From contig JAQGDQ010002382.1 of assembly GCA_030141605.1 (NCBI GenBank), forward strand, positions 299,594 to 363,593: a DNA stretch of 64,000 nucleotides, given 5' to 3'. The DNA comes from Tubiluchus corallicola. Its lineage: Eukaryota; Animalia; Priapulida. The notes beneath the pieces were generated by a model. That model ran no database searches and was not told the DNA's origin. It saw only the letters and a list, made by a program, of their open reading frames with translations. Shown here piece by piece: positions 11,701-17,700 of the stretch. The position numbers and the translations under genes were made by a program. The stretch's first letter is position 1. The number at the start of each line of letters is the position of its first letter.

Positions 11701-14700
11701 ATCGATCATAATCACGCAATTATGTGTGAATAAGAGAACATAAAAATACTCTTGTGATCAAGGTCTTGAGGTTTTAGTTGCCTAAACTTAAGTTTTGCTT
11801 CGCATGTTTTCTGGCTTATTTTCTTTTGAATTAGCGACATGTTTCTTCTGTTTTTCAAACGGCAGATGATGGTGAGACTTATTTGTTGTAAATTTGCACA
11901 GTGATGCACCCTTGTTTTCGATGGCATCTCAAACTGTGGGCAGCACGTCCACAAAGTTGTCGTCTTCCTCCTCTAAAGTGCACAACCTTTGTGAAAATCT
12001 GTGTTGTAAACAATACTGCACAAACCTTCTGTCATAAAATGAATCATCAATGGTGCAGGGTATTTTCGAAATTTAGCAATAGGAAAATCGGTATCAAGTA
12101 ACATTTTAACTTTAGAAAATACGGTTTGTTCTCATCATTTTAAGAGGAAAAACTATTTCCGATACCTGGTGGCTAGCTTTTGTAGCCTGGTGACACTTGA
12201 ACACAATCAATCAACATTACTTAACTTGTTGAACAAGCTTATATTAGATTTGCTTACTCAGTGGGTTTTACTTGTTTCTTATTATGATACTTGTAGTCAT
12301 TGATTTCCCAGCTTTGTGACCCTTTATTTAACAGAAATTGAGAAAATTAGTAGGCCGGATTTGTTGTATTAGTCGGCTTCGATGTTTTGCACAACTTTCT
12401 TTCTACACCCTTTGCACTTATGACATACATTTCAGCTTTACATTTAGCTACATAGTGAAAGAGCTGCTGCTTTTTACAGTAGCGCCAGCAGATTATTAGG
12501 TAATGCCTTTGTTCTAGTGATCTATTAGCAAGTCGTCTGTTGTAGCAGTCGGTGTTTGTGGGTTTTCTAGGAAATATGAACAACAGATTTTATGATTTCA
12601 TTCATATTATTTAGTCTTTACGCAAAAATGATTCTCATGATGTTATTGAAATGAAGGGTATGATAAACACAATCTTAGACCTGACTCCGCTTGTGGCATT
12701 AGGAAGTCTGCTTCTGATTTGAGCGACACAAGTGGCCTTCCCTAAACACATAACCATTTTGTGAAGGTGTTGGTAACTTTTACCTGGCAGGTGTTTCATG
12801 TGGAGGTGTTATGCTGTGCTGTTTTGACAGCTGCTGTTACGTTTTAACATAAAAAGTGGTTATTTATTTAAAGCATTTGTTACAATTATGTGTTTTTTAA
12901 TCACTTATTTGATAATGTGTACTGTTTAGTTGCTTGTTTGTATTATAGATTTTTTAATTTTTGAATTCATAATTTTCTTGTTGCGTAATATAGTATACAT
13001 CCAATCTTAGAGTTGCATTTATAAATTGAAATGTAGCTATTTTATACGACTTGTTTATTCGATTTTTTACATTTACTAGAAAAGACTGTTGATATTGCAA
13101 TTATAGTAATAACTATTCTGTAGTTTTTTTTTGCAAATATGAATGTATGTGTATAGCCATCGTTTTCAGTTTTTACGTTTATAAAAATTCTCCTTTGAGT
13201 TTTTTGGCATTCATTTTTTACCACAAATAATCTGGGAATTTAGTTTAGCGGCAGAGTGACTAATCGCATTTTCCATGTGAAAAATACTGGAGTATATTGA
13301 ATCTATTGTTCACATAACTGTTAACTAAATAGCATTGTAAAGCTTTTTCACTGTTGGATAAGTAAAACCTGCATCAGCTCAAATATACAAAAACTGTCTA
13401 GTCACAAGGTACCTATATTTTCAACCTGCCAAGGAATTGTATTGACATTTTGACTTCTTAGATTGAGCTTTTTCATCTTTATTTTTATACATTTAGCCAA
13501 AAACTCAATGTTAATTAGTAGCTTCCTAATTAGATCTGGTAAAAACTTAAAATGATGGTGTACGTATGCGCTGTCAGTTATGCCTTTGTTCATAGCATGC
13601 TGTGGAGAAAATTTTGACAATGATTACTGGTACATGTATGTATTTTTCACATTCTGGGTTGAAACGGACTAGGTAGGAAACCAAGCCATTTATTGTTGAG
13701 TTCTTTTTTGCAGTCGGAACAAATAAACCAGGCATTACCGCTGAACGAAAACAAATTATACGGTCAAAAATACGTGCAATAGGCCGCATTGCACGCATGT
13801 ATCATGTCCTACGGTAAGTGGAGAAGCGAACCACCCTGGAAACCTCCGCATTGCATGGAGTGCCTAGTCGTCGATGCAAGTGCTAATGCATTAGAGATGC
13901 CTGCGGCTAATACTAACATTATATTGTTTCTAAATAGAGTGTATTTGCTTCCGAAGTGAAGAGAATTCTTAAACCTAACCGGGCACTAAACTTATTTTTT
14001 AATAAGTGCCTTACTGATTTGATATTGAAGCAACGATTCAGTAAATGCCCTTACTAGTTACACTCGGTGTTCATTTCACGGTCCCCTTATTACTTTGCTT
14101 TACAGGGAAAAATGTCGATGAGTTAATAAAAGAATTAAAACTTATTCAGCCTGTGTGTGTTCGCTCAGACCTAAGACTTGCGGCATCAGATGAAGACCTA
14201 GGTATAAGAACTGCGAATGATGCGCTTTATTATTAACAAAGTGGAGCTGAATATGAATTGTGCTGTTGCATATAATTAAATATGACTGACTAACATTTTT
14301 TTTTAAATTCTGGTTTTGTATTCAGTTAAAGAATAGGAACTTGAGCAAAAAGTACGAATTGATCTTTTTTACCTTTGTTGTTATTTAAAGCCCGTTGGCT
14401 TTTTTGTTGTATGAGTAGGTGTGCGTGTGCACGTGCGCGCGTGTGTGTGAATTTTATATTGTTATTCTAGAGTTGCCAGATTTGGCAGTTTAAGTCCTTA
14501 AACTAGTGTTGAAATTTATCAACGACCATCAACAGTTTGGAATATTATTAAAAAAATGAGAATATGCACTTATGGCAATGTTACTTTTCGTAACACTGTT
14601 CGTATTTCCTGACTTGTGTGATGTTTTGATTTGGGTGCCCTGCTGTTTTTTTTTTTGTCAGTATATGCTTATGTTCAAGTCGACCTTATGTACAAGTCGA

Positions 14701-17700
14701 TGTGCATTTGAAGACCAAAAATTGTATCATTTTGTATATTACCTGTGTACAAGTCCACCCAAAAATATTAAGATCTTCCAGAGTAAATGATGTCAACAAT
14801 GGCCGAGTAATAAATCAATAGCCTACTGTGTTAGTGTGTAAGATACGTGCAAGTGCCTGGGCCGAGTATATTATACCTACCCGATGTATATATATATATA
14901 TATATATATATATATATATACTCATGTTGAGGGCCATCAATGCAATCCATGATAATGCAGCCTGGCCTTTCATCACGCATAATTGTTTGTAATGCCTTTA
15001 ACGCTAGTATATCGAGCCCAGGATCCGTCGTAACATTTCAGTCGCTGATTTCTCAATTAAAACTAAAAACACATACCTGAAACGGCACAGTTTTATTCAG
15101 TAACATCTTTTGAATAGAAATACATCTCAGTTTTCAAATATCAATTCCGTTTATGCATATTTACGCTAGATTTTCAACAGTCAGTATCAATCTGAAGATT
15201 GTTTTTGCTCCTATATTTACATGTACTGATCGAGTGCTCCGTCGCTAGTTCATTTGCCGGTAATATATAAATTTTAACTTAATTTCACATACATTAAAGT
15301 AAATTGCAGTAATATTTCTTAATTTTGTGAAGTAAGATGCAAACATTCTCTGATGTGAAGTATCACAGTATGAGTGTTCATTCAGTCCAGTGTATAATGA
15401 AGGATTATTTCTTTACATATTCGTATTGTAGACGACTCTTTAGCGACATATCCCAAAAACTTATCTTAAGTATAAGTCGACCCGAAAAATTTCACCTTAA
15501 AATCGCCTCCCAAAAATTCGACTTGTACATAAGTATATACGGTACTATGTAGACGGTTAACTTCACTAATGCCGCCCATACTACTAATTGACATTAATTA
15601 GAGACCTTCTTAAGTGCAATATGCTGGAGTCAAAGTTTAGAAATGATAAATCTCGATTTTTATATCTTACAGTAACATCTTAGCGTCTGTTTCTTTCACC
15701 TGTTTTGTCATGCTGTATCAGTGGAGGCTTGTAGCTAAAATAAGTGGGGTGCTGCTTCAGGAAATTTTTAGCCATTGTTTTAATGCTATGCAAAATGAAA
15801 CAAAACATATGTAATTTTAATGTTGTAATTTGTAATTGTAATTTTAAACAAACAAGCATACAAAAACATACGTAAACTTGATAAAATCCTAAAAGAAAAA
15901 AATTTTGCTTACGAATAGCCTAAATTGCTGCAGTTCAAGAATATGCCAGTACATGGTTTTTAAGAACGTGACAACTGACAACTGTGTGAGTGACAGTACT
16001 TTCTCTACCTAGCAGCAGATGCTAGCAGTGCAGCACAATCATGTGCTCTGGTTCCGTACAAGTATAAAGAAAGAACTAAAGAAAAAAGACTTATTGTATT
16101 GAATATTATCGATAATATTGAGTGAAAATAGGGGGTGCTGCAGTTCCGATACTTATACACAAGCCGCCACTATGCTGTGAACTGGTTTAAGTGATTCGAC
16201 AGCACGCGCCCCTTTATATGCCATATATCTCTCATAATTTATGTACTCACAATGTTAAAAAAATTCCTGGCTTATAATCTGGCAACTCTAGCGAAAATTT
16301 AACAACTGTTTGTTACTGGTTTTTTTTTATTAATTATTTTTCTTTTTACAGTTATACTTTTTTTGGAGAACTTAATCAGTTATAGTTTGATATGCCTTTG
16401 CTTGTATATTAATAAATATTTGTCATATTTATAGACTAGAAAACTTCGGCTTCAGTAGTGGTCTGAATCCTTTATTAATATTTTGTGTGCGAGTAACTTA
16501 CTAACACGCTCATGCATGATTTGCTTGCTTGATTTGCCAACAGGGGGAGCTGCAGCAGCAGCACGGAAAGAAGTGATTAGAAATAAAATTCGGGCAATTG
16601 GTAAAATGGCAAGAGTATTCTCCGTTCTGAGGTGAGCCTTACTAATTCTTGTTTGCATGTTGCTATAAGTCTCACAGTAGTTTAGTTTTAGTGCACTGCA
16701 AGTGAAATCAAACTTTGCAAATGAGTCGAACTTTGTTACGCGTAAGCATATTTCACTGCAATAATTGTGCCTCCTTACTGTCTCAGTTAAACAAAGCAGC
16801 AATGAAACATCACATCTGACAGATAATGCAATTATTCTTTTGAAATTTTGATGCCTAAATGCAGAAGATATAAAATTTGCTGCTTATATTGTTGAGTAAT
16901 ATGTTGAAAACAACAGCAACATCAGATATTTACTACTAAGATTCTAGAGACATTTTTAGTAATCTCATTGGCACATTTGCTTTAATCGAAAGACCTCATT
17001 GATTCTTCTTTATTAGTGTCTATAAAGTTTGCAGTCTAGTATGAAAGAGGGTTTGAACAAGTACCTGTTGTTATTACTGCATTTTTATTGCTGCGGTTTT
17101 ACGTTGTACTAAAGCGGTGAATATTTGAAATTCTTTTCAGAGAAGAAAGCGAAAGTGTACTGCAGTTAAAGGGTCTCACACCTACAGGATTGCTACCACT
17201 GGGTGCTTTGTCAGGGGGAAAGCAGAGCTTGCAGGGAGGTGAGTACTACATGATGGCGGAGATATTATTGCCATCCAGCACAAATGTTAAGTGCACAGTT
17301 CATAAGTTATTTTCATTGTCACATTTTCTCTATTTGATTTAGTGGTAATTTGGTTTTCTGCTAGTTAGCCTACTTGGCTGACTTGAAGATAGTGAGGAAT
17401 CATAGGATGCTGAATAATGTATTCTGAGTCTTCATTTTTAACAAAATCATGCGCCTGTAAACTAAACAATTCTGTAAATGCCTTTTTTTACGTAACTAGT
17501 ACTGTATATTTCGTTTTTTATTTGATTTCACTATGAAAAAATACAATATTTGCTGTAAATTCTAAAACTTTAGGAGAAATATGTTACTAACGCCAACGTG
17601 AATGATACAGAATGCTGTTTCGGTAATATGAGAACAGAAGTATGTACCCGACGTTTATCAAAATATTTTAGTAACTATGCATTCAAGTTATACAACTTTT

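Follow-up and report, generated by a model that had tools for sequence, protein, structure and literature searches.

Among the closest described parallels to the locus reported here is tax-6 of C. elegans, whose exons 13a and 13bc are tandem, mutually exclusive exons in the regulatory region of calcineurin A, used with a tissue bias between neuron and muscle (PMC12503234). Those exons exchange a linker exon that follows the calmodulin-binding domain, and the accessible sections of that paper describe variation of the worm protein in linker 1, linker 2 and the N- and C-terminal parts only. In the priapulid Tubiluchus corallicola, by contrast, it is the calmodulin-binding exon itself that is duplicated: within a stretch of 64,000 nt (assembly GCA_030141605.1, contig JAQGDQ010002382.1, positions 299,594 to 363,593; hereafter the window), the calcineurin A gene carries a divergent copy, exon A, ahead of the canonical exon B.

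Tandem exon duplication substitutions (PMC8373072; OGDH exons 4a/4b, PMC7969005) likewise let homologous neighboring exons swap a Ca2+-related element; the supplementary table of the human catalogue of such duplications holds no entry for PPP3CA, PPP3CB or PPP3CC and five for CAMK2D (PMC8373072), and the short supplement of PMC9741552 names no PPP3C gene either. The mammalian cassette exons 10a and 13 of Ppp3ca/b/c occupy the same two linker positions as three microexons of 3, 6 and 9 nt in the window, but they are insertions beside the helix, whereas exon A would replace it (PMC5577920). Testis-enriched CnA-gamma of mammals (PPP3CC) is a possible parallel as a tissue-biased variant (PMC12503234), although it arose by gene duplication and not by exon swap. 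Vertebrate CNAbeta1, made through an alternative 3' end of PPP3CB, is a natural isoform without the autoinhibitory domain, and PMC8523714 terms it the only known exception to canonical activation; it keeps a standard calmodulin-binding domain, and its tail, 40 residues long, holds an LxVP-type inhibitor together with two palmitoylated cysteines. The priapulid gene would resemble it if exon A were joined to a candidate terminal exon, C, described below.

Literature searches whose scope stopped short of subscription journals, bioRxiv supplements, figure alignments and most invertebrate RefSeq isoform models turned up the mammalian linker cassettes, the nematode linker-2 exon pair and CNAbeta1, but no calcineurin whose calmodulin-binding exon is duplicated. 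A swappable exon of this kind is apparently undescribed, and automatic annotation or the older literature may already contain it; such exons appear to escape standard gene annotation.

The duplicate exon and signs of selection on it

The calcineurin A gene lies on the + strand and is already under way at the start of the window, where the part from the end of the catalytic domain to the stop codon is encoded by exons over 5744-19569; proteins of arthropods, priapulids and hemichordates match the peptide of its first visible exon with 98-100% identity. An upstream constitutive exon (10175..10252, +) encodes the end of the CnB-binding helix and the start of linker 1 and closes on a phase-1 donor, and a downstream exon (17141..17238, +) opens linker 2 on a phase-2 acceptor. 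Between them lie exon A (13714..13813, +; 100 nt, ttgcag acceptor, CG-gtaagt donor) and exon B (16544..16631, +; 88 nt, caacag acceptor, AG-gtgagc donor), both entered in phase 1 and left in phase 2. The original prediction, an annotation made from the letters alone, had the coordinates, translations and phases of both exons right; its strong splice sites are confirmed for A (scores 5.9 and 6.6), and not for the acceptor of B, which is modest at 2.7.

Exon A recovers exon B within the window by tblastn (E 2e-12), with 15/24 residues identical, and matches the human calcineurin calmodulin-binding peptide 2jzi_B with an E of 2.2e-5. Across 10300-17100, where 14 acceptors and 5 donors pass ad hoc thresholds, A is the only open pairing reported. 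Its codons are as heavily diverged as had been claimed, differing at 11 of the 15 residues that are identical to B, and yet its core keeps an open frame without indels, conservative substitutions and a consensus donor. Over 24 codons pS between A and B is 0.86 against a pN of 0.28 (Fisher p 3e-5). When B was allowed to decay neutrally in simulation, the frame stayed open with 14/23 identity or more in 21% of runs at d=0.3, in 1.2% at d=0.5 and in 0/5000 at d>=0.75. These comparisons argue that selection at the protein level has acted on exon A during most of its existence, since neutral decay seldom leaves such similarity at a divergence of 0.5 or more; the old duplication under selection proposed earlier is supported by pS versus pN and by the simulation alike.

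What would exon A change in the protein? In human alpha numbering, I396, I400 and I403 are kept, while M406I, V409M, F410Y and S411H distinguish A from B; the charge of A is +6 and its hydrophobic moment 0.77, against 0.75. Ser411 we take to be a kinase site, and the helix presumably overlaps the autoinhibitory segment. I396, I400, I403, V409 and F410 are calmodulin contacts (PMC5372313), and PMC11662586 lists the autoinhibitory segment. The helix of exon A is predicted to retain calmodulin binding in altered form and to inhibit more weakly through this segment. With the three isoleucines, the charge and the amphipathy kept, it would still bind Ca2+/calmodulin, yet differently, because the change of V409/F410/S411 to M/Y/H alters two contact residues and removes the serine. 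A difference between the two forms in Ca2+/calmodulin sensitivity and phospho-regulation, put forward in the original prediction, is likewise a prediction.

The calmodulin-binding segment is otherwise nearly invariant: we fetched 206 homologous proteins, mostly of arthropods, and 114 of the 124 with a locatable segment have an identical 23-residue stretch, while none of the 124 carries an A-like helix. A Pfam search gave no match for exon A or candidate exon C, a degenerate pattern for A-like exons had 0 matches in metagenome contigs, and a protein search with exon A returned five candidates, none at E<=10, a null that means little for so short a query.

Second copies in other genomes

Scanning metagenome contigs for the canonical exon end and its donor gave 55 loci, which form 31 groups by exon sequence; in 11 loci belonging to five groups, a tblastn search with B brought up a second calmodulin-binding exon: L002/L019/L042/L050, L003/L049, L010/L030 and L012/L045 (E 6e-6 to 5e-3), and L051, whose copy is near-canonical. 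The copies lie approximately at L002:1148-1242, L003:7822-7928, L010:1200-1292, L012:8526-8643 and L051:1318-1403, and each is AG/GT-bounded, runs from phase 1 to phase 2 and measures 85-118 nt. Five of 31 is a minimum, as the next exon is visible in 27 groups, the upstream exon in 10 and both in 9; one of these nine has a second copy. The second copy stands 3' of the canonical exon in four groups, and 5' of it in L051 and in the window. In those four groups it is flanked by the canonical exon and the next one, and as the 300 nt behind it are free of poly(A) hexamers, it must splice onward there.

The introns between the copies in the five groups measure 105, 74, 122, 490 and 52 nt, the last being that of L051. 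For L002 and L003, every branch-point-like motif lies within 18 nt of the upstream donor, with AG-free zones of 72-93 nt. These distances and the 52 nt of L051 agree with the steric threshold of about 50 nt given in PMC7969005, where distant branch points enforce exclusion in OGDH. The introns of L002, L003 and L051 appear, from their layout, suited to steric mutual exclusion, and L002 and L003 resemble OGDH in this respect, whereas the spacing in the window makes it impossible.

The copies of L002, L003 and L010 are conserved among themselves (pS 0.76-1.04, pN 0.31-0.43), yet their rate of change is several times that of the canonical exon, for which pN is 0-0.06. F410Y, which turns the anchor Phe into Tyr, recurs in four of the six second copies, namely A, L002, L003 and L010. 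Position 411, which is S or T in all canonical copies, reads H, T, T, R, E and A in the six, with L012 carrying the Glu at this place. Exon A shares 14/23 residues with B and 6-9/23 with the four divergent copies. In a tree of regulatory exons, L002, L003 and L010 group with L026 and L029 (split support 84), with L012 and the window outside; the tree excludes L051 and short loci, lost L031 to a length filter, is not rooted and leaves the window's lineage unplaced. The different order of the copies and their low similarity suggest that second copies probably originated repeatedly. The other genomes support the design and not exon A in particular.

A hidden Markov model (HMM) seeded with the copies found no further ones at E<0.9, its scores for the copies themselves being circular, and a protein search with an alignment of five divergent copies gave 2392 candidates, none significant, a weak null for a short query. 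A phmmer search over 1.84 billion representatives yielded one match, P0121: like L051, it has two near-canonical copies, here read through without splicing. Two Glandiceps isoforms diverge immediately ahead of the helix, a difference that linker cassettes account for. Separately, L047 contains two AG/GT-bounded copies of the linker-2 exon, approximately at 785-882 and 2211-2305, like nematode tax-6 13a/13bc.

A proposed choice between A and B, and a candidate alternative 3' end

In silico, a full-length protein results when either A or B is spliced in singly; the two lengths differ by 12 nt, and either one restores the frame. As had been predicted, using both or neither breaks it: the A+B product meets a stop after 12 codons and the product that skips both after 9, in each case well 5' of later junctions. 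We consider it the probable reading, if by no means a secure one, that A is exchanged for B in a regulated manner within the full-length enzyme, with exclusion achieved by choice together with decay of the out-of-frame products. Exon A would be spliced to the exon at 17141, replacing B in some cell types and yielding a full-length phosphatase with an altered helix of the calmodulin-binding and autoinhibitory segment; exclusion would come from regulated choice and from decay of the A+B and skip-both messages rather than from steric spacing.

How might the choice be made? Rbfox proteins bind TGCATG and activate an exon from downstream and repress it from upstream. Of the gene's seven TGCATG motifs, three fall no more than 50 nt from A or B (binomial p ~1e-4, for a motif chosen post hoc): 13852..13857 (+), 39 nt 3' of A; 16513..16518 (+), 31 nt 5' of B and beside a branch-point-like CTAAC at -43; and 16654..16659 (+), 23 nt 3' of B. 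The Rbfox-type sites 3' of A and 5' of B would favor A in muscle or neurons. Another TGCATG is found 97 nt 3' of a 3-nt microexon at 11192-11194.

Transcript-like evidence bears on B. Run X2, a small contig set listed as a guess at RNA, comes from a relative with ~94-97% identity to the window's exons. In its contig 14, B is joined to the next exon across GT..AG, then to a 9-nt piece and then to the last exon, while the loose 5' end holds the end of the upstream exon, a 3-nt piece and the greater part of a 6-nt piece. In the window each of the three corresponds to a microexon flanked by AG and GT: ACG (11192..11194, +) and ATGATG (11866..11871, +) in linker 1, and a 9-nt exon in linker 2 (17858..17866, +) whose letters stand within the joint 17238>19410 of the contig. 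The B form is in use, with three microexons. The mutual exclusion of A and B claimed in the original prediction thus finds indirect support in the frame logic, the Rbfox-type motifs and the same design in other genomes. X2 covers exon B and later exons, run X1 has no contig over exon A, and neither informs on the expression of A. X1 consists of patchy data that look like DNA, carries an adapter at 14073 and may be the source sample.

Several observations weigh against a regulated swap. Exons A and B are 2730 nt apart, so steric exclusion is impossible in the window, and no exclusion mechanism, steric or by RNA pairing, was found there. Pairing in the A-C intron gives a z of 0.15, 10 of 11 flank pairings fall inside the range of 8 shuffles each, and the one marginally past its shuffles joins the flank of the upstream exon to the upstream flank of A (-20.8 versus -19.2); inverted repeats in the window are unremarkable. 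Of 12 acceptors compared, none has so short an AG-free zone as that of exon A (11 nt), which also lacks a consensus branch point within 70 nt. The pS value is saturated and includes the lineage of B, and a recent loss of function is compatible with the test. The copies in other genomes are not close to A (6-9/23) and have no GCATG nearby. Finally, candidate exon C is, of the 119 strong acceptors on both strands of the window, the only one with two poly(A) hexamers within 45 nt after it, and as the next strong acceptor after A it would end the message before the autoinhibitory domain.

Candidate exon C (14106..14201, +), which probably is a real exon on the strength of its signals, can be read in two ways. 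Its acceptor at 14106 is strong (5.1), has a 46-nt AG-free zone and is the first strong acceptor 3' of A. Read after A, in phase 2, it encodes EKCR and a TGA at 14119-14121, followed by AATAAA at 14125, ATTAAA at 14134 and a GT-rich tract (10/10 G/T). In phase 1 its 96 nt are open throughout and form a cassette, closed by AG-GTATAA, that would place 32 residues ahead of B; among the 119 strong acceptors only three have a phase-1 open frame closed by AG-GTR, and C is the sole unannotated one, the other two being known exons. Both tests on C, that of the hexamers and that of the cassette, were made after the feature had been noticed. Neither C nor the microexons figured in the original account of the gene.

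Splicing of A to C could thus be the main product, with EKCR, a stop and polyadenylation near 14145-14155. We think this unlikely, although exclusivity with B would then be automatic. The protein would have the catalytic domain, the CnB helix and the variant calmodulin helix, would lack linker 2 and the autoinhibitory domain, and would likely be an overactive calcineurin; a worm calcineurin engineered to stop at the corresponding site (REE-stop) is overactive (PMC12503234). Two such hexamers occur in just 0.44% of the 45-nt windows of the gene, besides being confined to one strong acceptor, and an X1 contig agrees letter for letter over 14073-14615, so that a lone assembly slip does not account for the frame, with the proviso on the origin of X1 given above. 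The hexamers are, however, possibly a by-product of A-rich codons in the other, open frame of C, and the phase-1 cassette fits an in-frame linker insert ahead of B, like the linker inserts of arthropod proteins. Nor does C show significant likeness to downstream exons (279/2000 and 803/2000 shuffles score as well), and in none of the four other groups whose copy is divergent is there a terminal signal of this kind. The joint of A to 17141 is accordingly graded as the likeliest outcome and not the sole one, given a candidate terminal exon only 292 nt after A, and the swap for B and an ending at C can coexist. Compared with CNAbeta1, an A+C product would carry the variant helix and end in a tail of four residues that contains a single Cys and lacks LxVP, and so would differ from it in both domain and tail.

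An origin of C by duplication of the downstream, last or upstream exon was rejected for want of significant similarity. P0139, a gene model of Dimorphilus gyrociliatus, is a calcineurin whose C-terminus lacks the standard helix and the autoinhibitory domain; reading its odd tail as A plus C was likewise rejected, at chance level (1043/3000 and 2540/3000 shuffles; HMM 122/1000).

It is improbable, in our estimate, that exon A was once functional and is now decaying and unused. The short AG-free zone and the lack of a consensus branch point at A would fit such a fate, and loss does happen, as L026 and L029 have no detectable second copy though they group with three duplicate-bearing loci. A dead exon would not be expected, however, to show an indel-free open core, a consensus donor, conservative substitutions, a pN far under pS and a TGCATG 39 nt downstream. 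Very improbable is a mainly regulatory poison exon that would lower calcineurin through decay or truncation when included with B or left unspliced (CGG TAA): both products do contain a premature stop and nothing steric bars A-to-B splicing in the window, but there would be no reason to keep the residues of the calmodulin helix while synonymous sites saturate.

Surroundings of the exons and significance

Other features of the window stand apart from these questions. A 20-nt inverted repeat (90%) lies 5' of exon A, pairing 13157-13176 with 13539-13558, with a weaker competing arm at 13210-13231, and is not above chance. High-copy repeats, recognized by very high X1 contig depth, lie between C and B at 14660-15550 and 15750-16180, the first with apparently inverted ends. 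The last coding exon (19412..19569, +) encodes the autoinhibitory domain and the stop, and a 63-nt tandem duplication (19253-19380) lies directly ahead of its acceptor. Beyond the gene, 25181-26320 (+) encodes a reverse-transcriptase fragment (PF00078), adjoined by an opposite-strand open reading frame at 24532-25095 (-) resembling a retroelement end. From ~29300 to 64000 a unit of ~14-16 kb with a phenazine-biosynthesis-like gene (PF02567) is tandemly triplicated, its copies 93-99% identical; 42513-49611 and 56901-64000 are 99.4% identical, and this last pair is possibly an assembly duplication.

A broader proposal is one that we put forward tentatively and think more doubtful than the swap itself. 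Several animal lineages may have independently evolved a fast-evolving second calmodulin-binding exon, converging on F410Y and often losing Ser/Thr411, as a tissue-specific switch of calcium sensitivity; in T. corallicola exon A could also end at C, in which case a natural calcineurin devoid of the autoinhibitory domain would join CNAbeta1 as a second exception.

Known splicing of calcineurin alters its linkers or its tail. A swappable sensor helix would, if true, allow one gene to make enzymes with different calcium thresholds, and exon A together with the four divergent copies would offer a ready natural series on the role of residues 409-411 in calmodulin binding and autoinhibition.

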